From Candidatus Gastranaerophilales bacterium (GTDB lineage: Bacteria > Cyanobacteriota > Vampirovibrionia > Gastranaerophilales > Gastranaerophilaceae), in assembly GCA_944324365.1 (NCBI GenBank), contig CALUWA010000006.1, forward strand, positions 1,113-65,112: a stretch of DNA of 64,000 bases, given 5' to 3'. The position numbers and the translations under genes were made by a program. Positions within the stretch are counted from its first letter, which is position 1; the number at the start of each line of letters is the position of its first letter. The notes beneath the pieces were generated by a model, which searched no databases, was not told the DNA's origin, and was given only the letters and a program-made list of their open reading frames with translations. Shown piece after piece: positions 3,563-62,392 of the stretch.

Positions 3563-4720
3563 TTATTTCCAAGGATAGTCGTCTTTGAATGTCCAGCCGT
3601 CACCGGTGAATATTAGGAAACATAATGTAGGAAAGCCTCCGCCATAACTGGACTCTTTGCACATCTCTATAATATCATTTCTTGAAGATATATACATTCT
3701 TGGTAATCTCGGAATCTCAAATTTGCGATTTCCGGTGTTAAATACTGTGGCAATGTCAAAGACGTCACGGCCTACAATATTTGGGGCTTTTTGGCAATTA
3801 ACATCGGTTGTAAATGTTGCAAATTGGTTATTAGACCATAAAGTGATACAAGAGCCGTCTGCCAGTCTAAAGAATGCTCCTCTGGTAATTGAGCCGTCAT
3901 GAAAATATGCATCTTGCCCGTTAAAATTATATGCATGGTATGTATCTGTAAATTTATGAGCTCTGGCTCCGGATGTTCTCAGATACGGCATATAATATTT
4001 TTCTACAAATTCTGTTTGTGTAATTTTGGCCGGTATAGATTCGCCTGTATCCGGATCTGATGATGATATAGGCATATCCCAATATTCCATATCTCCGAAA
4101 TCTTTTACTGCCATTAAATGTGCGTTATATAAAAGAGAATATGTTCTTTTAAGTTGAGTAGCGGTAACAATTTTCTGGTACTTTGCTATAAGCATTGGCA
4201 TTGTCATAGCAGCGACAATACCGATAATGCCAAGGGTAATAAGAACTTCCGCAAGTGTGAAGGCTGCTTTTTCTTTTAGATCGCGGACAGGCTTACGCCT
4301 TCCGCGATGACATGCGGCAGGCAAGATGTACCATAGTTTGTCATCGCGTACTTCGTTGTGCGATCTTTTCTTCTGGATTGCTTCGCTAACTATCGGATTA
4401 TTCGGGTTGTCGCCGGAGTGACGTCCGGCTCCAACTTGCGGGCTGGGGCACTTCGTGCCACGGCACCCTTCCGAAAATCCGACCTCGCAATGACGCCTAA
4501 TGTCATCCTGAACTTGTTTCAGGATCTTACTACCATCGCAATGTGACAATTTGCTTTGGATACTCTTTTCCCGGATTGCTTCACTTCGTTCGCAATGACG
4601 TATGGTGTCATCCTTACAAAGCGAACCGCTGGTTACATTGTCATCCTGAGCGATAGCGAAGGATCTCTTATTTAATGAGATTCTTCGGGCTAAAGCCCTC
4701 AGAATGACAAAAGGCGTCAT
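3563..4720 (-). CDS. type IV pilin-like protein A (prepilin-type N-terminal methylation motif) with repeat-built extended leader
   Basis: KAA|FTLAEVLITLGIIGIVAAMTMP motif (F codon 4261-4259) followed by a 232-aa mature domain ending GDGWTFKDDYPWK; paralog of C. The N-terminal ~153 aa of the track ORF is a translation of palindromic repeats. The frame stays open upstream as far as the G tract at 4819-4830. True initiation is uncertain. Confidence 0.75.
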   Translation of the reverse strand: MTPFVILRALARRISLNKRSFAIAQDDNVTSGSLCKDDTIRHCERSEAIREKSIQSKLSHCDGSKILKQVQDDIRRHCEVGFSEGCRGTKCPSPQVGAGRHSGDNPNNPIVSEAIQKKRSHNEVRDDKLWYILPAACHRGRRKPVRDLKEKAAFTLAEVLITLGIIGIVAAMTMPMLIAKYQKIVTATQLKRTYSLLYNAHLMAVKDFGDMEYWDMPISSSDPDTGESIPAKITQTEFVEKYYMPYLRTSGARAHKFTDTYHAYNFNGQDAYFHDGSITRGAFFRLADGSCITLWSNNQFATFTTDVNCQKAPNIVGRDVFDIATVFNTGNRKFEIPRLPRMYISSRNDIIEMCKESSYGGGFPTLCFLIFTGDGWTFKDDYPWK

Positions 4721-4760
4721 TGCGAAACGCGAAGCGTTGAAGCAATCCAGAAAATTGCAA
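4270..4760. repeat. cluster of GC-rich GTCAT...ATGAC palindromic repeat modules inside the leader region of pilin-like A
   Basis: Modules seen: ATCGCGGA-N13-TCCGCGAT (4280-4308); GTCATCCTGAAC-TTG-TTTCAGGATC (4502-4526); GGATTGCTTC...GCAATGAC (~4573-4599); a 69-nt hairpin GTCATCCTGAGCG...CCCTCAGAATGAC (4640-4708); GTCATTGCGAAACGCGAAGCGTTGAAGCAATCC (~4716-4748). Homologous modules occur at 55562-55632 and 61012-61640. Confidence 0.85.
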
Positions 4761-4818
4761 TACCGGGTTTTAAAAGTGTCTAAAAGGCTGAAACTATCTC
4801 CAAAAGCGGAGAGTCTAG

Positions 4819-4830
4819 CCCCACCCCCCC
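4819..4830 (-). repeat. interrupted homopolymer (G7-T-G4 on coding strand) after the upstream ATG of pilin-like A
   Basis: Plus strand reads CCCC-A-CCCCCCC. It sits 14 codons after ATG 4871-4869 (SD GGAGG 4885-4881). As assembled, the frame stops at TAG 4817-4815. Confidence 0.9.
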
Positions 4831-4907
4831 TGGAGAATATAGGTATAATCAGTGTTTTCAGATTTTAACATTTGATATATCCTCCATAAATTCAAGTATC
4901 TGTTAAT

Positions 4908-10297: not shown

Positions 10298-11278
10298 TTG
10301 GTGTTTATGCTGATTTTAATTTTATTGATTGCGGTCGTAATTTATGTATTTAAGGGTATAATCATTGTTCAGCAGCAGCAGGAAGTGATTATTGAGCGTA
10401 TGGGACGTTATGAAAGAACACTTACTGCAGGGCTGAATTTCATTTTTCCTATTTTGGAAGCACCGCGTGGTATTTTGACAAAGGTTAGCCAAAGAGGTTT
10501 TGACGGGCAGACATATTATTTGTTAAAACAGGCAGATAGGATTGATAAACGTGAGCAGATGTATGATTTTCCTCGTCAGAATGTAATTACGGAAGATAAC
10601 GTTTCGATTACTATTAATGCGTTAATTTATTTCCAAATTATTGACTCAAAAAGTGCGGTATATGAGATCGCGAATTTGCCGGAAGCTATTGAAAAGCTTA
10701 CCCAGACAAATTTAAGAAACCTTGTAGGTCAAATGGATTTGCAAAAAACATTGACTTCCCGTAATACGATTAATACGGAACTTCGCACAATTCTTGATGA
10801 AGCAACAAACAAATGGGGTGTAAAAGTTAACCGTGTAGAAATTCAAGATATTTTCCCTCCTGCTGATATCCAAGCTTCAATGGATAAATTGATGAAAGCA
10901 GACAGAGAAAAAACCGCAACAATTACGGAAGCTGAAGGTTTGAAAGAAGCCGCAATAAGAAAAGCAGAAGGTGAAAAAGAAGCTGCTATTCGTTCTGCAG
11001 AAGGCGAAAAGCAGGCAGAAATTCTGCGAGCCGAAGGTGTTGCTCAAGCTCGTATTATTGAAGCCGAAGCGGAAAAAGAAGCTATTAATAAAATTATTGA
11101 GGCTTTTGCGGATAAAGGACAGCCTGATAAATACCTGATTGCAATGAAATATCTCGAAACTCTTGGTGATATCTCAAAAGGCCAGAATAACAAAGTTGTT
11201 TATATGCCTTACGAAGCGTCAGGAATTCTGGCTTCAGTTGATGGTATCAAGCAAATGTTTGATAAACCGGCAAAATAA
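10298..11278 (+). CDS. SPFH/band-7 (stomatin-like) protein
   Basis: N-terminal TM segment, SPFH core (IIVQQQQEVIIERMGRY...DNVSITINALIYFQI...) and a C-terminal AEGEKEAAIR coiled-coil repeat region. The start could instead be ATG 10307. Confidence 0.88.
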   Translation: MVFMLILILLIAVVIYVFKGIIIVQQQQEVIIERMGRYERTLTAGLNFIFPILEAPRGILTKVSQRGFDGQTYYLLKQADRIDKREQMYDFPRQNVITEDNVSITINALIYFQIIDSKSAVYEIANLPEAIEKLTQTNLRNLVGQMDLQKTLTSRNTINTELRTILDEATNKWGVKVNRVEIQDIFPPADIQASMDKLMKADREKTATITEAEGLKEAAIRKAEGEKEAAIRSAEGEKQAEILRAEGVAQARIIEAEAEKEAINKIIEAFADKGQPDKYLIAMKYLETLGDISKGQNNKVVYMPYEASGILASVDGIKQMFDKPAK

Positions 11279-11353: not shown

Positions 11354-12172
11354 CTAATGATTGCAGGTTCCATTATACTCCCAAGCTCCATAACCAGATG
11401 AGACCCACCATCCCCCGGCATTGACACAGGACTCATAATCCGTACAAAACTGCGGGGTTTCAGCAGAGCATTCCTGAACATCCGCGAGTTCCTCAGAAAT
11501 ATCGTAAAGCTGTCCTCCTTCGCCTGCGAACCTGAATTTAAGAAGGTCTTTGGTCGCAATGTTAGGGTTATTTTTTCCGTTAACATCGACAACAACATCG
11601 AAGGACGAGAAGGTATCATCTGGAATAACGCCGAAAATCATGCCGTCACCTGTTGTGAACATATAGAGCACATCATCCCAATTAAACGGCGACGGAGAGG
11701 CTTTGCCTTCGACGGCGTACGAGTCCGGGAGTCTTTCAGGCTGGAGCCCGTTAACAGAGTCGTTGATAACATTAAATGCATCTTTGTGTTCCTTAGAAAC
11801 GCAGTCTTTGTCTTCCATTTCGTTACACTTAGCCAAGAAAGGAAGATTAGCAACGTTAAAGATTTCGTAGTGCGCCATCATTAATTTATATCCGTTAGCG
11901 ACAATATTTTTGGCTTTTTTAGCCTGAGCCTCGAGAATAAGCTCCTGGACTTTGGTTTGGAGCATAGGCATGGTAAGTGCAGCGACAACACCAATAACGC
12001 CGAGAGTAATCAAAACTTCGGCTAAAGTGAATGCAGTCACATTGTTACGAGGAGCGGCCCCGAAGATATCTTCATACGCAATGTTATCGGATACAGGGTG
12101 AAAACGCTTGCCTAGCTTATGATTAAGTCCCCCCCCCCCCCCGGAGAAATCAGCTATAATTGAGTTTTTCAT
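11354..12172 (-). CDS. type IV pilin-like protein B, G-tract in frame (ON)
   Basis: SD AAAGGAGGA then ATG 12172. Leader is MKNSIIADFS-GGGGG-LNHKLGKRFHPVSDNIAYEDIFGAAPRNNVTA (47 aa), followed by |FTLAEVLITLGVIGVVAALTMP (F codon 12031-12029). Mature domain contains VDVNGKNNPNIATKDLL, related to the DxN(C/G)xxxPNxxG(R/K)D motif of A, C and E. Confidence 0.8.
   Translation of the reverse strand: MKNSIIADFSGGGGGLNHKLGKRFHPVSDNIAYEDIFGAAPRNNVTAFTLAEVLITLGVIGVVAALTMPMLQTKVQELILEAQAKKAKNIVANGYKLMMAHYEIFNVANLPFLAKCNEMEDKDCVSKEHKDAFNVINDSVNGLQPERLPDSYAVEGKASPSPFNWDDVLYMFTTGDGMIFGVIPDDTFSSFDVVVDVNGKNNPNIATKDLLKFRFAGEGGQLYDISEELADVQECSAETPQFCTDYESCVNAGGWWVSSGYGAWEYNGTCNH
12129..12142 (-). repeat. homopolymeric G14 tract inside the leader codons of pilin-like B
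   Basis: 14 consecutive C on the plus strand, translated as GGGGG. The length keeps the upstream ATG in frame with the pilin domain. Confidence 0.95.
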
Positions 12173-12248
12173 AAGTCCTCCTTTGAGAATTACAGTATAC
12201 ATTATAATTTTAACATATTTTAAAAATTTTTCAAGATTGCTTTTAAGT

Positions 12249-12656
12249 TCAGTGTTTTACAGAACAGTCTTTGCATTCTCCGTAAAGTTCAAACTTATGA
12301 CCGGTGATATTAAAGCCTGTTTCATCTGCCAATTTATTTTCCAATTCTTCCAGCGGGCAGCAGTCTATCGGAATCATTTTATGGCATTTTGTACAAATCA
12401 TATAATGCTTATGGGTTTCACGTACAAGTTCATATCTGGCTCTGTTATCATTCAGTGTTGTAGCTTTATTTACAATACCGAGAGTTACAAGTTTTTCAAT
12501 AATTCTGTATATTGTGGACAGCGAAATTTTTGGGATTTCTTCTTTTGCCATATTATAAATTTCTTCTGTCGTTATTGGACAATTCTGATGTTCAAGAATT
12601 TGCAATACCTTATCTCTGTTTTTTGACGCTCTGCAACCTTCTAATTTCTGCCGCAT
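12249..12656 (-). CDS. Fur-family metalloregulator (Fur/Zur/PerR type not resolvable)
   Basis: Winged-helix N-terminus, HKHY motif and two CxxC pairs (CTKC..., CKDC). ATG 12656 preceded by GAAAGGG is preferred over the track's GTG 12671. Confidence 0.85.
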   Translation of the reverse strand: MRQKLEGCRASKNRDKVLQILEHQNCPITTEEIYNMAKEEIPKISLSTIYRIIEKLVTLGIVNKATTLNDNRARYELVRETHKHYMICTKCHKMIPIDCCPLEELENKLADETGFNITGHKFELYGECKDCSVKH

Positions 12657-12752
12657 AATTAACCCTTTCACGATTATTTTAACATAATTTTTAAAAAATA
12701 TAGCAAAATAACTTGATTATTTTTATTTAAGTTGTCTAATTATAAATGCAAA

Positions 12753-12835: not shown

Positions 12836-13525
12836 ACAGAGGATAACGTATCTATCACAATTAATGCTTTAATATATTTTCAGATAATTGATTCAAAAAG
12901 TGCGGTTTATGAGATTGCTAATTTGCCGGAAGCCATTGAAAAACTTACACAGACAAACTTAAGAAACCTTGTTGGTCAGATGGATTTGCAAAAGACACTG
13001 ACTTCACGTAACACAATTAATACGGAACTTCGTACAATCCTTGATGAAGCTACAAACAAATGGGGCGTAAAAGTCAACCGTGTAGAAATTCAAGATATTT
13101 TCCCTCCTGCTGATATCCAAGCTTCAATGGATAAATTGATGAAAGCAGACAGAGAAAAAACCGCAACAATTACGGAAGCTGAAGGTTTGAAAGAAGCCGC
13201 AATAAGAAAAGCAGAAGGTGAAAAAGAAGCTGCTATTCGTTCTGCAGAAGGCGAAAAGCAGGCTGAAATCTTAAGAGCGGAAGGTGTAGCGCAAGCTCGT
13301 ATTATCGAAGCTGAGGCAGAAAAAGAAGCTATTAACAGAATAATTGAAGCTTTCGCTGATAAAGGCCAGCCGGACAAATATTTGATTGCAATGAAATACC
13401 TTGAAACACTTGGTGATATTTCAAAGGGTCAAAATAACAAAGTTGTTTATATGCCGTATGAAGCATCCGGAATTTTGGCATCTGTCGACGGTATTAAGCA
13501 GATGTTTGATAAACCTGCAAAGTAG
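12836..13525 (+). pseudogene. 5'-truncated duplicate of the SPFH gene (last 229 codons)
   Basis: Collinear with 10589-11278 (offset 2247). The encoded peptide is identical except K->R. It lacks the N-terminal ~97 codons, TM segment, SD and ATG. Upstream it joins out of frame to a 26-codon ORF starting ATG 12792. Confidence 0.75.
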
Positions 13526-18173: not shown

Positions 18174-21100
18174 ATGTCTAAAAAATTATCGAAGATGAGT
18201 ATCGCAGCTTTAGTTATTGCTTTTTCTGTAGCTACAAGTGCCAGAGCTGGTGATATTACTGGAATTACCGGAGTTGGTGGTGTGTTTGATATTAGTCCTT
18301 CAAGGATTAATGGAGAAGCTGGTCTTAGAGAATATACAAATTTTAGATTAGATCAAGGTGAGGTTGCAAACCTGATTTTTAAATACGGCAATCAAGATAT
18401 TTCAAAATTCGTAAACCTTGTCGATAATCAAATTAATATTAACGGTTTGGTCAACACTGTAAGAAACGGACAATTTTATCCTGGCGAAGCAATATTTGTA
18501 TCTCCAAATGGTATGGTTGTAGGTGAATCAGGTGTTTTGAATGTTGGTTCATTATCTGTTTTGACTCCGACTGCACCGGGTATGAAAATGTTTAAAGATG
18601 GTAAAGCTACATTAGAAGAACTTGGTTACCATGGTAATTCGAATATAACAGTTAACGGTATGGTTCTTGCCCGTAATAATATAGGAATGGTCGCAAGAGA
18701 TTTGACCGTAGGGCCTAATGCTGCTTTAGTTGCCGGCATGGGTACAGGCTATAATACTTTGGTAAATAATTCCCAGCAAGCTTCCGATTTATTTAATCAG
18801 CTTGTAAATACTGGTAAAAATTCAAGCAGTGCAAATATTGAGTTAAGAACATATAACAGAGACGGCGCAGGTACTAACGGTATGAATATCCAAGGCGATG
18901 TTATAAATCATGGTACCGGCGATATTGTTATGATAAACCGCGGCGCAGGATTTAATACATCAGGCGGTCATATAACAGCTCATGGCGGTGATGTTTATCT
19001 TACTAATGGCAATGGAGCAATGAATGTTAACAGTACAGTTTCTGCGGATAGCATTTATATTGCTGGTGGTTCTAATGCCGGTGGTATAAATATTGATTCG
19101 GATTTGTCCGGAAAAGATTTAGTTCAAATTGTTCATAATGGTTCAGGTAATACCTCTGTGGATGGTGATATTTCAGGACAAGGTAACGTTTATATAACAG
19201 AACGTAGTGGAAATTTGGCTATTAACGGTGATATTACAAATGCTAATGGTAATGTTGTTATTGCAAGTAACGGTACAGGTTTGACTATCGGAGATAGTTC
19301 AGTTATTTCAAATAATAATAAAATTCAAATTGCAAATACCGGTAGAAATGGTATTACATTAGATGGCCAGGTTAAAAATTCAGGTAGTACCGCAATTACA
19401 AACCGTTCCGGTAATTTCAACATAAACGGTTCTGTGGAAAACACATCCGGAAAAATGAATATTACAAATACAGGTAATAAACTTACTTTAGGCACTTCTT
19501 CGTCAATTGTCGGCGGCGGAGATGAGTTATTAATCCAAAATACAGGTGCCGGCGGTTTTGAGGCTAACGGTACAATTCAAAATACAGCATCAACCTTCCT
19601 TCAAAATACCAATGGTGCGATGAATGTTAACGGCACAATTACAAATTCCGGCGACGTTCTTTATATAGCAAATACCAGAAACGGTTCAGGTTTAACTATT
19701 GGACAGAATGCCAATATATCAAATGATAATTCTCTCCAAATCCTGAATACAGGTGCTAACGGTATGACAATCGGCGGTACAATTTATAATGACCATAATT
19801 ATGAAAGAGGTACCGCGATTACAAATCGTGCCGGTAATATGGTTGTTAATGCCAAAATAACAAGCAAAGATGGTAATATAAATCTTACCAATGTCGGTAA
19901 TGGCGGTCTGACAATTGGTAACAGTGCAGAAATCGGTTCTGGTAACGGTGAATTGACTGTTCAAAATACTGGTAACGGCGGTTTGACTGTAAACGGTACT
20001 GTTAATAATAAAGGTACTGCATTTGTATACAATAAGACCGGCGATATGAACGTTAATGGTAAGATTGTTAATTCCCAGGGCGGTCTTTACATTACAAATG
20101 ATGGTAATGCAATGAATCTTAATGAAGGTTCTGCAGTCAGAGTAGCCGGCCAAGGTGCAAAACTTAATATTCTTAACCGAGGCGATGGCGGTATGAAGAT
20201 TAGCGGCAATGTTGCAGATACCGGTAAAACTCTTATTACAAACGTAAAAGGTGATTTCGATATTGATGGTGTTATCAGCAACAAATCAGGTCAGTTAAAT
20301 ATTACCAATAACGGTAATAAGTTGACCATAGCAGAAGGTGCCAGCATATCAAACGATACAAACAGAATTTATATAACAAATAAAGGTGCCGGTGGTATGG
20401 ATGTAAACGGCCAGGTTGTTGGTCAGGGGCATATACTTCTTACTAACAGAAATGGCGGCATGAAAGTATCTTCAAATGTTACATCCGGTAAGGCAAATGT
20501 TGTATTAACAAATACCGGGAATGAAGATATGGTTGTCAATGGTACAGTTACCGGACAAAAGGTTACAGCAACAAGTAAAGGCAATGATATGATTCTTGGC
20601 AACACTGAAACTGATCAGGTTGCGATAAACGGTACTCAAAAAGTTGCAATTACTGTTGAAAACGGCAGCCTGAAAAATGCCGGCAGCGAAGCTGATTTAA
20701 TTAAATCTAATGGAAATTTGTTTGTAAATGTTACAAACGGTACAATTGGCGAAGAATCCGCAACCAAAGATTTGACAAAATCAGTAAATGTTAACATTGG
20801 CGGTAGAATTAAAGCCTTTACAAATAACCGTGATGGTTCAAACAATGACTACAGCATAAATATGGCAAGCCAAAATGCCGATATGAATGTTGACAGAATC
20901 AAAGCTGACGGTACATTAAGATTGGATACAACCGGCTCAATCTTAAATGCATCAACTGATCTTGCAAACTATGCAAACGTTAAAGGTACAACACTTCAAT
21001 TATATGCTGATCAATACATCGGTACCGCAGATAATGCATTGCATTTCCGTCAAACAGATGCGTCTCAGAAATCAAATGTGGTTGCAGGCAGAGATGTTAA

Positions 21101-21311
21101 CCTTCACCATCGTGGCGAAGCTGTTGGTGAAAATGTTAACTTTGATACTATCGGCTCTAAAACCGGTAATGTCACTGCAGATATCATCAAAGACGGTGTA
21201 ATTGATAATGTAATTGCTCCGGGATCTATTAATGTTACATCCCGTAGACAGGATGCTAATCTTGAGATTAAAAATCAATCAAATGATACATCATTAATCA
21301 AAGATTACTAA
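18174..21311 (+). CDS. filamentous-haemagglutinin-type (TPS domain) beta-helical exoprotein
   Basis: Signal peptide, then a TPS/haemagglutination-activity region (FVNLVDNQININGLV...AIFVSPNGMVVGESGVLNVGSL). About 800 aa of periodic N/G/T-rich repeats follow (NGxI.N..G...I.N.G.GLTIG). No TpsB gene in the window. Confidence 0.8.
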   Translation: MSKKLSKMSIAALVIAFSVATSARAGDITGITGVGGVFDISPSRINGEAGLREYTNFRLDQGEVANLIFKYGNQDISKFVNLVDNQININGLVNTVRNGQFYPGEAIFVSPNGMVVGESGVLNVGSLSVLTPTAPGMKMFKDGKATLEELGYHGNSNITVNGMVLARNNIGMVARDLTVGPNAALVAGMGTGYNTLVNNSQQASDLFNQLVNTGKNSSSANIELRTYNRDGAGTNGMNIQGDVINHGTGDIVMINRGAGFNTSGGHITAHGGDVYLTNGNGAMNVNSTVSADSIYIAGGSNAGGINIDSDLSGKDLVQIVHNGSGNTSVDGDISGQGNVYITERSGNLAINGDITNANGNVVIASNGTGLTIGDSSVISNNNKIQIANTGRNGITLDGQVKNSGSTAITNRSGNFNINGSVENTSGKMNITNTGNKLTLGTSSSIVGGGDELLIQNTGAGGFEANGTIQNTASTFLQNTNGAMNVNGTITNSGDVLYIANTRNGSGLTIGQNANISNDNSLQILNTGANGMTIGGTIYNDHNYERGTAITNRAGNMVVNAKITSKDGNINLTNVGNGGLTIGNSAEIGSGNGELTVQNTGNGGLTVNGTVNNKGTAFVYNKTGDMNVNGKIVNSQGGLYITNDGNAMNLNEGSAVRVAGQGAKLNILNRGDGGMKISGNVADTGKTLITNVKGDFDIDGVISNKSGQLNITNNGNKLTIAEGASISNDTNRIYITNKGAGGMDVNGQVVGQGHILLTNRNGGMKVSSNVTSGKANVVLTNTGNEDMVVNGTVTGQKVTATSKGNDMILGNTETDQVAINGTQKVAITVENGSLKNAGSEADLIKSNGNLFVNVTNGTIGEESATKDLTKSVNVNIGGRIKAFTNNRDGSNNDYSINMASQNADMNVDRIKADGTLRLDTTGSILNASTDLANYANVKGTTLQLYADQYIGTADNALHFRQTDASQKSNVVAGRDVNLHHRGEAVGENVNFDTIGSKTGNVTADIIKDGVIDNVIAPGSINVTSRRQDANLEIKNQSNDTSLIKDY

Positions 21312-52148: not shown

Positions 52149-52371
52149 TATAAGATATTTCTCCCTGTCAGATAATCTTTATTTTACTACCTTTATAATA
52201 CTTCAAAACGGAGAAAAAAGCTATAAATTTGTAACAAAATTTTAATAAAAGGTAATAAAGAAAAGAGAGTATGGAACTCAAGCCATTAACTTACGTTTGT
52301 TGTAATACAAGAGTGCCGGAGTAATGCTTTCTTTTTTGCCTTCTTTTTTCTTTGAGCTAAAGAAAAAAGAA

Positions 52372-52516
52372 TGGTGGCCCCGGCGCGATTGTCTTGGTCG
52401 CTCGCGTGTAACGGCATTCCGTATTTTGCTAATGTGTTTTCAACACAATCGCAAAATAGCTCCAGCCTCAGCTCGCTCCCGCTCGACCGCAATAGGCGTT
52501 CTCATCGCTGCCGGGG
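52372..52516 (-). ncRNA. candidate structured small RNA, copy A (hypothetical)
   Basis: Extended -10 TGTTACAAT (52533-52525). 5' CCCCGGCAGCGAU pairs with 3' AUCGCGCCGGGG (12 bp, one bulge), followed by CCACCA and a T-rich tail. Internal 8-bp UAUUUUGC/GCAAAAUA stem encloses a GUGUU-GAA-AACAC hairpin. No family recognised. Confidence 0.3.
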
Positions 52517-52578
52517 TTATGTTTATTGTAACACAAAGCTTCCTTAGGAATTTTTTCCTTCAAATGTAAAAAAAAGAA

Positions 52579-52723
52579 TGGCGGCCCCGGCGCGATTGTC
52601 TTGGTCGCTCGCGTGTAACGGCATTCCGTATTTTGCTAATGTGTTTTCAACACAATCGCAAAATAGCTCCAGCCTCAGCTCGCTCCCGCTCGACCGCAAT
52701 AGGCGTTCTCATCGCTGCCGGGG
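52579..52723 (-). ncRNA. candidate structured small RNA, copy B (hypothetical)
   Basis: Same as copy A shifted by 207 nt. The 3' end reads CCGCCA. Confidence 0.3.
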
Positions 52724-52785
52724 TTATGTTTATTGTAACACAAAGCTTCCTTAGGAATTTTTTCCTTCAAATGTAAAAAAAAGAA

Positions 52786-52862
52786 TGGTGGCCCCGGCGC
52801 GATTCGAACGCGCGATCTTCGGTTTAGGAAACCGCTGCTCTATCCTGCTGAGCTACGAAGCC
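52786..52862 (-). tRNA. tRNA-Arg (anticodon CCT), CCA encoded
   Basis: Hand-folded cloverleaf: acceptor GGCUUCG/CGGGGCC, D arm GCUC/GAGC, anticodon loop UUCCUAA, T arm GCGCG-UUCGAAU-CGCGC, discriminator A plus CCA. Confidence 0.85.
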
Positions 52863-52868
52863 GTAAAA

Positions 52869-52942
52869 TATGCTTGACGGGAGTCAAACCCGTGACCTTC
52901 GGCTTCGGAGACCGACGCTCTATTCAACTGAGCTACAAGCAC
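52869..52942 (-). tRNA. tRNA-Arg (anticodon CCG), no encoded CCA
   Basis: Hand-folded cloverleaf: acceptor GUGCUUG/CAAGCAU (G1-U72), anticodon stem UCGGU/GCCGA, loop CUCCGAA, T arm ACGGG-UUUGACU-CCCGU. The unusual U56 is matched by a D loop (AGUUGAAUA) lacking the GG pair. Confidence 0.7.
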
Positions 52943-53005
52943 AAATTATAAAATAATTGTACTATAACCCGGTTTATTTTTCAATCATAATTTGCAATAA
53001 TCAGA

Positions 53006-54874: not shown

Positions 54875-55702
54875 TTACTTCCACGGATAATCGTCTTTGA
54901 TTTGCCAGCCATCGTAAACTATTATCGCAAAACAAGCTGCTTGTTTGCCTCCATTGTATGTGTGTGTTTTGCAGCCGGAGTTGTTCATTATTTGTTCTCT
55001 AGGAAATGATTTAAACGCATCAAGTCCTGCAATAAATGGTTTTTTGTTGTTCATGTAATATAATTCAAAAATATCAAAAATATCCCTGCCGTATATATTT
55101 GGGCCTTTTTCACAATTTAAATCTGTCGTTAATACAACATACTGATTATTAGACCACAGTGTAAGACAAGAGCCATCGGACATTCTGAAGGAGCTGCCTC
55201 TGCCATGAACATTATCGTATTGAATATCTTGTCCGTTAAAATTGTATGCTTTGTATAATCCGGATTTCTTTTTCTGATGCTGCAGGTACGGCAGATAATA
55301 TCTTTCAAGAAATTCATCATTAGTTATACTTCTTTGGTTATTTTCATCAGTAATCGGGTAGTCCCAGTATATTGAATCCCCGTAATCATTAACCGCCATC
55401 TGGTAAGCATTAGAAAGGAGTGAATAAGTTCTTTTAAGCTGGGTAACAGTCACGAGTTTTTGGTACTTTGCAATTAACTGCGGCAAAGTCATTGCCGCGA
55501 TAATTCCGATTATGCCGAGGGTAATAAGGACTTCCGCTAACGTGAATGCTGCTTTCTTTTTGTCATCCTGAGGATGAAATCCGAAGGATCTCTTGCTTAA
55601 TGAGATTCTTCGGGCTTTGCCCTCAGAATGACGATTGGTGTTCTTCTTACAAAGGAAGCCGCCAATAATCCAAGAAGCATTGTAATGTCGTACCTCAGGC
55701 AC
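54875..55702 (-). CDS. type IV pilin-like protein C, upstream start out of frame (OFF as assembled)
   Basis: KKKAA|FTLAEVLITLGIIGIIAAMTLP (F codon 55546-55544). The mature domain is a paralog of A and ends YDGWQIKDDYPWK. The track start is a GTG without an SD. The frame is open upstream to the G12 tract. Confidence 0.78.
   Translation of the reverse strand: MPEVRHYNASWIIGGFLCKKNTNRHSEGKARRISLSKRSFGFHPQDDKKKAAFTLAEVLITLGIIGIIAAMTLPQLIAKYQKLVTVTQLKRTYSLLSNAYQMAVNDYGDSIYWDYPITDENNQRSITNDEFLERYYLPYLQHQKKKSGLYKAYNFNGQDIQYDNVHGRGSSFRMSDGSCLTLWSNNQYVVLTTDLNCEKGPNIYGRDIFDIFELYYMNNKKPFIAGLDAFKSFPREQIMNNSGCKTHTYNGGKQAACFAIIVYDGWQIKDDYPWK
55562..55632. repeat. 71-nt GTCATCCTGAGG...CCTCAGAATGAC palindromic module inside the leader of pilin-like C
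   Basis: Imperfect long hairpin. Same module as 4640-4708 and 61044-61111. Translated in the pilin frame as HSEGKARRISLSKRSFGFHPQDD. Confidence 0.85.
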
Positions 55703-55788
55703 TCGGGCTTCGCCATCAGAATGACGACATAGCGCGGACTTTAACCTGTCTAAAAGGCTGGAACTTTCTCCAAAAGCGGAGAGCCTAG

Positions 55789-55800
55789 CCCCCCCCCCCC
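55789..55800 (-). repeat. homopolymeric G12 tract after the upstream ATG of pilin-like C
   Basis: 12 consecutive C on the plus strand, starting 14 codons after ATG 55841-55839 (SD GGAGG 55855-55851). The assembled phase terminates at TAG 55787-55785. Confidence 0.95.
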
Positions 55801-55877
55801 TGGAGAATACCGGTATAATCAGTGTTTTCAGATTTCAACATTTCGTATATCCTCCATAATTTCAAGCTTCTGTTAGT

Positions 55878-60598: not shown

Positions 60599-61266
60599 AG
60601 TTTAATTTTAACAATACTGCGGCTAAAGTGCAAGTTTTATATTTAGTGCCTGAGGTACGATACTATAACGCTTCTTGGATTATTGGCGGCTCGACCGGCT
60701 CAACGCAGCTCTCGCCTGGACGAGTTTCGCTGCGCTCACTCTTGCCAAAATCTGCTTCGCTGTGCGAGACGCACTATTAGTAGTATTTATTGTTCATTTT
60801 CTCTTTTTTATTGCGAAGAAAAAAGCGGATTGTGAGCGTAGAGTGAAGAGCGTTGCCATAGGGCAATGCTCTGGAACTCGTAATACGCGAACAACCAAGC
60901 AGAGAAAACGAACCAAAAGAGAAAAACACGCAATCGTTTTTTGCGCTGCCTGCGGCATCGCTTTGACCGAATGGATATACGTTCCGTTTGCTTCGCAAAC
61001 GAAATCGTTAAGCGCTGCTAAGGACAACGCAGCGCAATAAATCGTCATTCAGAGGGCGAAGCCCGAAGAATCTCCTTAAATGAGAGATCCTTCGCTAACG
61101 CTCAGGATGACACTAAGAGTCATTGCGAGGAGCTTTGCGACGAAGCAATCCACTAGGTTAAAGCGTATTCTCCTGGATTGCTTCGCTAGCGCTCGCAATG
61201 ACGTAAAAAGTGCTGCGTTGTCCTTAGCAGCGCAGCGTCATGTAAAAGAGGACTGTGGCCTCCCCC

Positions 61267-61295
61267 TTGCAAAATTTGTGAACGTCGTTTATACT
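61267..61295 (+). promoter_or_regulatory. sigma70-type promoter of pilin-like locus D
   Basis: TTGCAA (61267-61272), 17-nt spacer, TATACT (61290-61295), followed by AAAAGGAGGA and ATG 61318. Confidence 0.55.
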
Positions 61296-61348
61296 AATAG
61301 AAAAGGAGGATATAGATATGCAAAAGTCAAGTATAGCGCGGAAACACC

Positions 61349-61358
61349 GGGAGGGGGG
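61349..61358 (+). repeat. interrupted G tract (G3-A-G6) after the upstream ATG of pilin-like D
   Basis: Located 10 codons after ATG 61318. The assembled frame stops at TAA 61369-61371. Confidence 0.9.
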
Positions 61359-61603
61359 TATCTGCATCTAAGTCAGGGCAAGGGTTTGTGCCCGTTTGCC
61401 ATTGCGGCGAGCCTGAGGCTCTACACTATGACGCTGCGCTTCGTGGAATGCTACAATTAATCCAAGAGAAGAGATCGCGGACAAACCTTTGGTTTTCCGC
61501 GATGACATGTGGCTGGCGGAAGGTTCCAAAACCTGTCATCACGCACTTGTTGCGCGATCTATGAATTGCTTCGTCGCAAGCTCCTCGCAATGACGAGAAA
61601 TAT

Positions 61604-62392
61604 TTGCTTAGCAACCCTTTACTGAAAATCCGACCTTGCAATGACAGGAAAAAGAGTTTCTTCGGATTTCATCCTCAGAATGACATAGCAAAGAAAGCGG
61701 CGTTTACGCTTGCGGAGGTGCTGATTACGCTTGGTATAATCGGTGTAATCGCAGCATTGACATTACCCGGACTGCTTGCAGAGTATTCAAAGGTTGTGGT
61801 TGAAACAAAATTAAAAAAATTCTATTCCCAGATAAATCAGGCAGTACAGTTATCAGAAGCAGAGTATGGGGATAGAGCATACTGGCATCTTGGCGTAAAT
61901 ACTCTGGAATTTGATGAGAATGGAAAACCTATTCCGGGTACATCTTCTGTTGAGCAATGGTTTATGAAGTATATAGCTTCTCATATGACAGTAATTAAAG
62001 TTGATTATGATGATAATGCCAGACCAACGTTTTATTTTAAAGATGGTACGGCCTTAAAGCAAATGAATGGTTCTATCCAATCTTCTCATGAGGATTGGAA
62101 TCAGGATTGGATGTTTTATACTTCAAATCCGGAAAAATGTGAAAAGTTATATGGTTCTGAATATAAAGCACGAGGTCGATGCAGTTTTGCATTTATGTAT
62201 TTGACTGTTAGCGATGATCCTGCCTATAAAAATTTGGTAGGTAAAGGATTTGAGCCTTATAAGTATCGTTGGGATGGAACTGTTCGCTATTTTAAGGAAA
62301 GATGTAAAACTCAGCCTGAATACTGCACAGCCTGGATTCATTTGAACGGGTGGAAAATTCCTGATGATTATCCGTTTAAGGTTTCTTATTAA
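61604..62392 (+). CDS. type IV pilin-like protein D (possibly silent or decayed expression site)
   Basis: AKKAA|FTLAEVLITLGIIGVIAALTLP. C-terminus NGWKIPDDYPFKVSY is related to A and C. The track start is a TTG without an SD. The pilin frame is open back to the G tract except for one TGA at 61562-61564. Confidence 0.7.
   Translation: MLSNPLLKIRPCNDRKKSFFGFHPQNDIAKKAAFTLAEVLITLGIIGVIAALTLPGLLAEYSKVVVETKLKKFYSQINQAVQLSEAEYGDRAYWHLGVNTLEFDENGKPIPGTSSVEQWFMKYIASHMTVIKVDYDDNARPTFYFKDGTALKQMNGSIQSSHEDWNQDWMFYTSNPEKCEKLYGSEYKARGRCSFAFMYLTVSDDPAYKNLVGKGFEPYKYRWDGTVRYFKERCKTQPEYCTAWIHLNGWKIPDDYPFKVSY

Follow-up and report, generated by a model that had tools for sequence, protein, structure and literature searches.

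A candidate poly-G contingency switch in the leader of a type IV pilin-like gene of gut Gastranaerophilales

The outer-membrane protein genes of Helicobacter pylori carry CT repeats in the region that encodes the signal peptide. In Neisseria gonorrhoeae and Neisseria meningitidis, pilC1 and pilC2 undergo translational phase variation through poly-G tracts (Jonsson et al. 1991, as cited in PMC5320596), which differ between strains from G9 to G15 and gate expression (PMC5320596). The poly-G/C contingency genes of Campylobacter jejuni have been reviewed (PMC8355987). Here we analyze a stretch of 64,000 nucleotides (nt) from a Candidatus Gastranaerophilales bacterium (contig CALUWA010000006.1; hereafter the window), and in it a minus-strand gene, locus B, which encodes a type IV pilin-like protein and has a run of 14 G residues shortly after its start codon. 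We consider it probable that locus B is a simple-sequence contingency locus, in which slipped-strand mispairing in the homopolymer would produce translational phase variation. By analogy, the pilC1/pilC2 switch would be its closest known case in mechanism.

An earlier sequence-only reading of the locus had described a Shine-Dalgarno (SD) sequence, an ATG at 12172, the residues MKNSIIADFS and a G14 run on the minus strand (12142-12129), with the ATG and the pilin domain in one frame across a 47-amino-acid (aa) leader. Each of these elements, with its translation, was recovered where it had been placed, and the frame was confirmed as a single 272-aa open reading frame (ORF; Table 1). The G14 run begins 30 nt after the start of ATG 12172, and the leader as a whole ends in ...NNVTA, directly before FTLAEV; the mature domain opens from codon 48 with FTLAEVLITLGVIG. 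The putative promoter, whose function is suggested by its match to the consensus, sits in the 77-nt gap downstream of a Fur-family gene, and its TTGAA...TATAAT arrangement is kept across the aligned switch modules (alignment A2). The SD AAAGGAGGA is unchanged in all orthologous loci, and AAGGAGGA is found also in the diverged modules of two loci of a second orthologue group (L022 and L023).

The G14 tract of locus B is not a chance feature. In the window, with a GC content of 37%, C/G runs reach a maximum of 7, except for the C14 run of locus B and the C12 run of the paralogous locus C (both as read on the plus strand; Table 1), and these two long runs occupy the equivalent position in pilin-like genes. 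A G10 pattern returned eight overlapping matches, all of them inside the two tracts, compared to 0.03 expected from 100 dinucleotide shuffles. Because GGG is rare among glycine codons (16% in 26 Pfam-supported ORFs of the window), the five consecutive GGG codons (P ~1e-4 by codon usage) are a feature of the DNA level, rather than of the protein level. The run is uninterrupted, is longer than about 8 G/C residues and stands far above background. When tract lengths from G9 to G19 were simulated, the full protein of 271-273 aa with its pilin domain was obtained solely at G11, G14 and G17, and the other lengths yielded 14-21 aa. TGA within the ten pre-tract codons closes both frames other than that of the ATG; there is therefore no rescue from upstream, and one phase in three yields protein. 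The repeat in the 5' coding region thus toggles the frame. The simulation, together with the comparison of 16 assemblies given below, supports the earlier proposal of a tract-length-dependent switch that is ON at G14. The truncation predicted for a slip of +/-1 also holds, although the products, at 14-21 aa, are at the low end of the 15-30 codons that had been proposed.

The same locus was compared in 16 independent metagenome assemblies, reached through protein look-ups, in which tract lengths are those of the assembly consensus; a scan of the metagenome collection for the exact DNA flanks of locus B gave 0 matches. Promoter, SD, ATG and leader were identical or near-identical across the 16 assemblies, and the segment between TCC and CTTAAT measured 13, 14, 15, 16 or 17 nt, so that all three frames are covered; the distance from the ATG to Phe +1 likewise represents all three phases. 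The tract alleles were G12A, G13, G13A, G14A, G15A, G16A, AG13A and two interrupted forms. An identical 96-nt leader is present in 11 sequences (ten assemblies and the window), yet their tracts extend from G12 to G16 (G12A, G13, G13A, G14A, G15A and G16A), and those sequences of this haplotype that reach far enough upstream are identical in promoter and SD too. Each of the two main leader haplotypes, that of the window and one shared by five loci, includes both ON and OFF alleles, and the tract changes are therefore recurrent. A comparison with homologous loci had been suggested as a check on the switch, and its outcome, polymorphism of the tract on conserved flanks at the level of assembly consensus, agrees with the switch. 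The tract appears to be by far the most mutable site of the locus.

The same variation is visible at the protein level. Clusters at 90% identity or more hold one mature sequence with at least four different called N-termini. The called ON forms, of 272 or 282 aa, start at the upstream ATG and have SGGGGG, SRGGGG or SRGGG (about 10 contigs), and the truncated calls start with MTAFTLAEV, MYEDIF or MGGLNHK (about 36 contigs), MTAFTLAEV being the start in most contigs. Changes of +/-3 nt appear in these clusters as GGG, GGGG and GGGGG variants. Two independent contigs (L001 and L017) begin at the same base, 44 nt 5' of the tract, and another contig, L018, is a chimera joined at the tract. Such assembly breaks could arise from mixed tract lengths within a sample or from poly-G sequencing failure, and as a sign of within-population switching they are only suggestive.

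The gene downstream of the tract is retained irrespective of phase. In 12 OFF contigs the downstream ORF of 228 aa is identical and intact. Among close orthologues, the first 540 nt of the mature region have 34 variable sites, distributed over the three codon positions as 3/0/31. This pattern argues that OFF alleles are not decaying and that the mature domain is under strong purifying selection. A second orthologue group, at 57% identity and set in other genomic surroundings with MgtE and ArgS as neighbors, displays the same behavior: one locus has G12 and is ON (L022), and three have G13 and are OFF (L023-L025). Next to it, a DUF6613 pilin-like gene with an almost identical promoter copy has a tract of G11 (ON, 251 aa) in one sample versus G12 (OFF) in another. 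In 71.7 kb of fetched loci, G/C runs of 8 or more number 21, and every one sits at the 5' end of a pilin-like gene of the switch type. Locus B has every property of the simple-sequence-repeat class of contingency loci that can be examined on sequence.

The module was surveyed in metagenomes with a pattern of G10, a gap of 42-72 nt and [G/A]FTLAEV, which gave at least 120 loci (L026-L145), mostly from human-gut assemblies. The matches listed contain 129 tract sites, several per long contig, and the numbers that follow refer to these matches. SD and ATG were present 18-60 nt 5' of the tract at 110 of the 129 sites, 107 of the 110 falling at 18-36 nt; the distance from ATG to tract peaks at 27-35 nt, with modes at 30 and 34. 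Tract lengths concentrate at G10 (83 sites) and G11 (38 sites), and the tracts in the species of this window are longer (G12-G16) than this pile-up. Fifteen of the 110 sites were ON, a proportion that is not an unbiased frequency, as the survey admits tracts of at least 10 G and so misses the ON alleles of any family that is ON at a length of 9; the other 95 were OFF, 54 in phase 1 and 41 in phase 2. A bystander sample of 23 sites was too small, and the estimate of an ON frequency from the survey was abandoned. The ON minority agrees with the proportion for locus B itself, about 10 ON to about 36 OFF contigs, and in the population consensus the majority of copies seem to be OFF, which is what a multigene contingency family would lead one to expect. 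Among the matches are ON/OFF pairs, each from a single subfamily. In one pair MQNTIIASK..RGGGLDSAGG...AFTLAEV is read at G10 (ON) versus ...RGGGLR-stop at G11 (OFF), and in another MSKRSHRASFGGGGNLK... is read at G11 (ON) versus ...GGGVI-stop at G10 (OFF). A scan of genome contigs yielded 6 loci, hence no count per genome is given.

The product is most safely called a type IV pilin-like protein, or type IV filament subunit-like protein, whose leader is unusually long. The motif for cleavage and methylation (G or A at -1, F or M at +1, E at +5, then about 20 hydrophobic residues) is present as A↓FTLAEVLITLGVIGVVAALTMP, and a prepilin peptidase would cleave at A↓F. Across 60 aligned homologues, F48 (+1), T49 (+2), A51 (+4), E52 (+5) and P69 (+22) show no variation, and four C-terminal cysteines are almost invariant. 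The residue at -1 is Ala in 84 and Gly in 26 of 110 family representatives, whose leaders have a median length of 30 aa (range 4-186), some being canonical at 4-9 aa (MKKG↓F). Paralogue C passes both PF07963 (26.5 bits) and TIGR02532 (19.9 versus a cutoff of 16.3); paralogue D passes TIGR02532 (19.4), with a PF07963 score of 19.9 that is below the cutoff. The AlphaFold2 model built on the 60-homologue alignment (predicted local distance difference test, pLDDT, 82.5) has a 52-residue helix at 50-101 followed by a beta-sheet head, a predicted shape that is that of the pilin 'lollipop'. The leader is modeled with low confidence: mean pLDDT by blocks of ten residues is 43-61, with residues 1-27 below 50, and its one helix spans five residues (33-37). 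Side by side with this conservation, the last ~20 residues between conserved cysteines (window 11354-11430) take at least six unrelated forms in orthologues whose remaining sequence is at least 94% identical (P0121-P0148), among them VNAGGWWVSSGYGAWEYNGTCNH, VNAGGWWSTPYMDIPGRCN, WDAGGRWITAIPEFCSR and WNAGGTVWGTIYIGDGEYIPNCRF. The variation looks like a diversifying or cassette-type change of an exposed disulfide loop. Contigs of one metagenome-assembled genome (MAG) begin within the locus B gene, at residue 211 (L003, L004).

The mechanism that we propose for locus B is as follows. A sigma-70-type promoter and a strong SD would drive translation from ATG 12172, promoter and start both being assigned from sequence, and the ribosome would meet the G14 run after ten codons. 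Slipped-strand mispairing at replication or repair, a process that we infer together with its rate, would alter the run by +/-1 or more. Lengths of 2 mod 3 (11, 14, 17) would hold the ATG in frame, and other lengths would stop translation after 14-21 codons. As the tract lies inside the part of the protein that is presumably removed by cleavage at A↓F, changes of +/-3 would leave the mature protein unaltered, and the tract would therefore serve as an on/off switch only. With many copies of the module on pilin-like paralogues, the outcome would be stochastic, combinatorial expression of subunits that may assemble into surface filaments in the gut, under selection perhaps by phage or by host immunity.

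Several observations count against this account, or against parts of it. Locus B scores 19.2 bits with the Pfam family N_methyl (PF07963), just short of the cutoff of 21.2, and gives no match to TIGR02532. The usual prepilin leader has 5-30 aa and is basic; that of locus B has 47 aa and no basic residue in its last five positions. A Foldseek search of the AlphaFold2 model against the PDB returned nothing below E = 1, and no solved pilin; the fold therefore gives no functional assignment, and the head domain is uncharacterised. No pilus machinery genes were recognized by Pfam among 30 other ORFs of the window; pilA, B, C, T and D have been reported from a Gastranaerophilus single-cell genome (PMC5877343). 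ON alleles, at 15 of the 110 listed sites with tracts of at least 10 G, are below the expected one third. The tract lengths are those of assembly consensus sequences, and an Illumina consensus of G12-16 runs may be off by one base. Finally, the post-tract leader has 8 variable sites among close orthologues, at codon positions 2/4/2, with no indels or stops; this lack of third-position bias would fit a weakly constrained cleaved leader and, equally, non-coding sequence.

The excess of OFF alleles bears on a leaky rheostat, in which RNA polymerase slippage or ribosomal frameshifting on the G run would let tract length tune the level of expression, with some product made from OFF alleles as well. 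Transcriptional slippage on homopolymers is established in other bacteria, and the long tracts (G10-G16) favor it. Residual expression would also be the easier explanation for ORFs that stay intact and constrained while OFF predominates (95 of 110 listed sites; about 36 of 46 contigs). However, slippage is best documented for A/T runs, OFF alleles are spread over both wrong phases, so that no single programmed shift direction rescues them, and both wrong frames stop within 1-6 codons after the locus B tract. Such leakiness adds to a DNA-level switch, with which it is compatible, and does not replace it. We regard it as an unlikely reading, and as the best placed of the alternatives to contingency switching.

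The codon-position pattern of the leader bears on a different possibility, that translation is independent of the tract and starts, for example, at the GTG three codons before Phe +1 (MTA-FTLAEV), the ATG and G tract forming a short upstream ORF or an element of the 5' untranslated region. Gene callers picked this GTG in at least 24 contigs, and the leader substitutions among close orthologues have no coding signature. Against this, the GTG has no SD before it, it is absent from the paralogues and from other orthologues (KKAA↓F, NFG↓F and others), and a 3-aa leader would be atypical. Moreover, no allele of locus B has an in-frame stop between the tract and FTLAEV, the corresponding frame stays open over 95 codons in locus C and 163 in locus A, and a strong SD and ATG lie 27-35 nt 5' of the tract at most of the 110 listed sites that have one. 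The YEDIF motif of the leader is conserved at the protein level in distant homologues, and Y[ED][DN]IF-x7-TA↓F is kept in homologues that have no tract. One orthologue with 76% identity has SD, start and a 40-aa leader in the absence of a tract, and is likely a non-switching version. This orthologue and the conservation of the motif give better support to a translated leader. No in-frame ATG, GTG or TTG was found between the tract and the Y-E-D-I-F motif of locus B, and the upstream ATG 12172 appears to be the only plausible start. We rejected the GTG as the true start, and hold tract-independent translation to be very improbable.

That the length differences are an artefact of sequencing or assembly, the gene being constitutive with a fixed Gly5 linker in its leader, is slightly harder still to sustain. 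Several contigs have low coverage (3-6x), L001 and L017 share their first base, L018 is chimeric, and some alleles resemble typical homopolymer errors (GGGGTGGGGGGG, GGGGAGGGGGGGG). Yet there are five lengths (13-17 nt), more than a scatter of +/-1 about a single value would give; an identical G14 allele is present in four independent data sets, the window included; the same kind of polymorphism is present at unrelated paralogous loci and in contigs of 65-68x coverage; and a functional glycine linker would not require 100% GGG codons. No better placed is non-adaptive decay, with the run no more than a site of frequent mutation and the OFF alleles pseudogenes in the course of being lost, since, for all that OFF alleles outnumber ON and some tracts are interrupted (locus A, L007, L013, the P0014 group), OFF alleles are without secondary disabling mutations over a mature domain that appears strongly constrained, uninterrupted tracts persist at the same codon position across the 57%-identity orthologue groups and paralogues, and ON and OFF alternate within haplotypes.

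The proposed switch at locus B has counterparts elsewhere in the window (Table 1). Locus C would open to a pilin ORF of 320-322 aa at G8, G11 or G14 in the simulation, and at locus A a tract shorter by one nt or longer by two would give an ORF of 435-436 aa that reaches the pilin domain. The pre-tract modules of loci A, B and C are 67-71% identical over 55 nt and align with diverged relatives as TTGAA...TATAAT...AAGGAGGA...ATG...[AT]TATA[GC]C...G tract (A2). The sequence-only reading had remarked that loci B and C share an ON rule (2 mod 3 for B; 11 or 14 for C) on flanks that are otherwise different. The common phase is reproduced by the frame simulation; the difference in flanks does not hold for the homologous module of promoter, SD, ATG and pre-tract codons, and the shared phase probably reflects common descent and not an independent rule. 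The stretch from tract to pilin domain has 95 codons in locus C and ~163 in locus A, each a single open frame once the phase is corrected, and both traverse GC-rich palindromes that resemble repetitive extragenic palindromes (REP-like). Similar 'leaders' of 100-186 aa that translate like repeats (NRHSEGAARRISFDKRSF...) occur in homologues P0010-P0013 and P0039-P0040. These long repeat-bearing stretches are unexplained, and may be translated leaders or structured 5' RNA. Imperfect REP-like palindromes (TGTCATCCTGAGG...CGAAGGATCTC...GAGATTCTTCGGGC) cluster 5' of the pilin-like genes A, C and D, and the ~1 kb 5' of locus D (60600-61700) is built largely of them; the ORF at 61080-61460 in this upstream region gave no Pfam match. 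Locus D itself (61604-62392, DUF6613) is without a long G tract.

Taken together with the survey, these loci could reflect a portable cassette (promoter, SD, ATG, about ten codons, G tract and disposable leader) grafted onto many pilin-like genes in gut Gastranaerophilales, with some family members keeping leaders of 4-9 aa. The result would be a large, mostly OFF 'phasome' of independently switching filament subunits. We hold this broader proposal, unlike the switch at locus B, to be evenly balanced between true and false.

Table 1. Coordinates of locus B, its paralogous switches and associated repeats in the window.
Feature	Position	Strand	Remarks
Locus B ORF	ATG 12172 to TAG 11356-11354	-	single frame, 272 aa
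Predicted sigma-70-like promoter	12207..12234	-	TTGAAA, 16-nt spacer, TAAAAT + TG extension; 10/12 consensus matches
Shine-Dalgarno AAAGGAGGA	12176..12184	-	3 nt 5' of ATG
Start ATG (12172-12170) and ten pre-tract codons	12143..12172	-	MKNSIIADFS
G14 homopolymer, sense strand (C14 on + strand)	12129..12142	-	ON phase; with next A encodes GGGGG
Post-tract leader, one A + 32 codons	12032..12128	-	LNHKLGKRFHPVSDNIAYEDIFGAAPRNNVTA; ends with Ala -1; contains conserved YEDIF
TTC, Phe +1	12029..12031	-	predicted prepilin-peptidase site A↓F between 12032 and 12031
Mature type IV pilin-like domain	11354..12031	-	225 aa + TAG; hydrophobic helix, beta-sheet head, four near-invariant Cys, strain-variable C-terminal loop
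Locus C, paralogous switch and pilin-like gene	54875..55841	-	ATG 55841, G12 55789-55800; OFF
Locus A, paralogous switch	3563..4871	-	ATG 4871; interrupted tract GGGGGGGTGGGG (4819-4830); OFF
REP-like repeats	4639-4709, 55561-55736, 60645-60691, 61033-61112, 61495-61548, 61651-61685		

The closest genome records are MAGs of Candidatus Gastranaerophilales, and the window has the gene content of ordinary chromosome (among others AdhE, thioredoxin/DsbD, lumazine synthase, GpsA, TonB/ExbB, RNase Y, SMC and two-component systems). Rfam over the whole window detected two tRNAs only, and no RNA family at locus B. The Fur-family gene (12249-12671, minus strand) and locus B are flanked by a full Band_7/SPFH gene (10298-11278) and by a partial, ~90%-identical copy of its 3' 600 nt at 12923-13525 (200 aa), the repeat as a whole pairing 10589-11278 with 12836-13525. 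This arrangement is conserved in other samples (L009, L010 and L019) and suggests that the Band_7 duplication is tied to insertion or rearrangement of the segment with Fur and locus B. Two further contigs, L012 (1-1123) and L008 (1-108), match the window only from just 5' of the -35 element (window 12238-12240), and upstream an ACT-domain gene and REP-like repeats replace the Fur gene; in L004 it is the downstream context that differs. The unit of promoter plus gene is therefore present in more than one context, either as a second copy or by strain rearrangement. Elsewhere in the window, two tandem 207-nt repeats (52344-52943; 96% identical) each start with a copy of the 3' end of tRNA-Arg(CCT) (TGGTGGCCCCGGCGCGATT) and adjoin tRNA-Arg(CCT) at 52786-52862 and tRNA-Arg(CCG) at 52868-52943; integrative elements may have left them behind as duplicated attachment sites. 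An ORF of 1045 aa (18174-21311, plus strand), with no Pfam match, contains four copies of a 36-nt motif (NGNGAMNVNGTV-like) at spacings of 363-600 nt and may encode a repetitive surface protein.

Gastranaerophilales are widespread gut bacteria with, to our knowledge, no cultured human isolates, and we know of nothing on how their surface varies. No earlier description came to light in our search of the literature, which covered phase variation, pilin and homopolymeric tracts in Gastranaerophilales or Melainabacteria. Locus B and its paralogues would represent the contingency strategy of Neisseria, Campylobacter and Helicobacter applied to a large pilin-like family. If the cassette proposal is true, this would be the first contingency-locus system described in the sister lineage of Cyanobacteria and in an uncultured human gut commensal, with ON/OFF states that can be read from metagenomes, and it may serve in evasion of phage or immunoglobulin A; to place the switch within a long class III leader that can be cleaved off would, for pilins, be without described precedent. 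As ON and OFF are written in the DNA, the states of subunits could be scored in existing metagenomes against host, phage load and immune status. The locus is also a warning for annotation, with at least four N-termini called for one gene according to tract phase and assemblies that break at the tract, and a test case for how long a processable class III leader can be.

The comparison with known systems sets these points in relief. The locus B gene has no homology to its counterparts in Neisseria, Campylobacter or Helicobacter. As in pilC, a pilus-related gene has a poly-G tract in its 5' coding region and one phase in three would be expressed, the tracts here being G12-G16. PilC, however, is a large pilus-associated adhesin or assembly protein with a Sec-type signal, whereas locus B encodes a pilin-like subunit, and the two have no sequence homology; moreover, the locus B tract lies in an extended class-III-type leader, the module is found on many paralogues, and the host belongs to the uncultured gut Vampirovibrionia/Melainabacteria. 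The tract of locus B is also unlike the guanine-quadruplex (G4) system of Neisseria pilE antigenic variation, which combines a G4 motif with silent donor cassettes, in being a pure homopolymer within the ORF and not a four-run G4 motif upstream. The resemblance to C. jejuni is that of a low-GC gut bacterium in which long G/C runs stand out in or near surface-structure genes and in which multiple switches produce combinatorial phasotypes. The C. jejuni targets are mostly genes for glycosylation, capsule, lipooligosaccharide and flagellar modification, scattered and non-homologous, whereas here one homologous cassette of promoter, SD, ATG and tract precedes a single pilin-like family. With the outer-membrane proteins of H. 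pylori, locus B shares a repeat in the cleaved signal region of a paralogous surface family, where in-frame changes spare the mature protein, but the H. pylori repeats are dinucleotides in Sec signal peptides of beta-barrel proteins, which are not pilin-like. Compared with type IV pilins and pseudopilins (PF07963, TIGR02532), the protein has the same [G/A]↓F-x-x-x-E, hydrophobic helix and C-terminal cysteines, and a predicted succession of helix and beta-sheet; it departs from the usual pilins in the length of its leader (47 aa, and 95-163 aa in the paralogues of the window) and in having Ala rather than Gly as the usual residue at -1. The proposed mechanism is textbook; the interest lies in the lineage, which is uncultured, lives in the gut and is sister to Cyanobacteria, in how large the family is, in a module that resembles a cassette and in the position of the tract in an extended class III leader.

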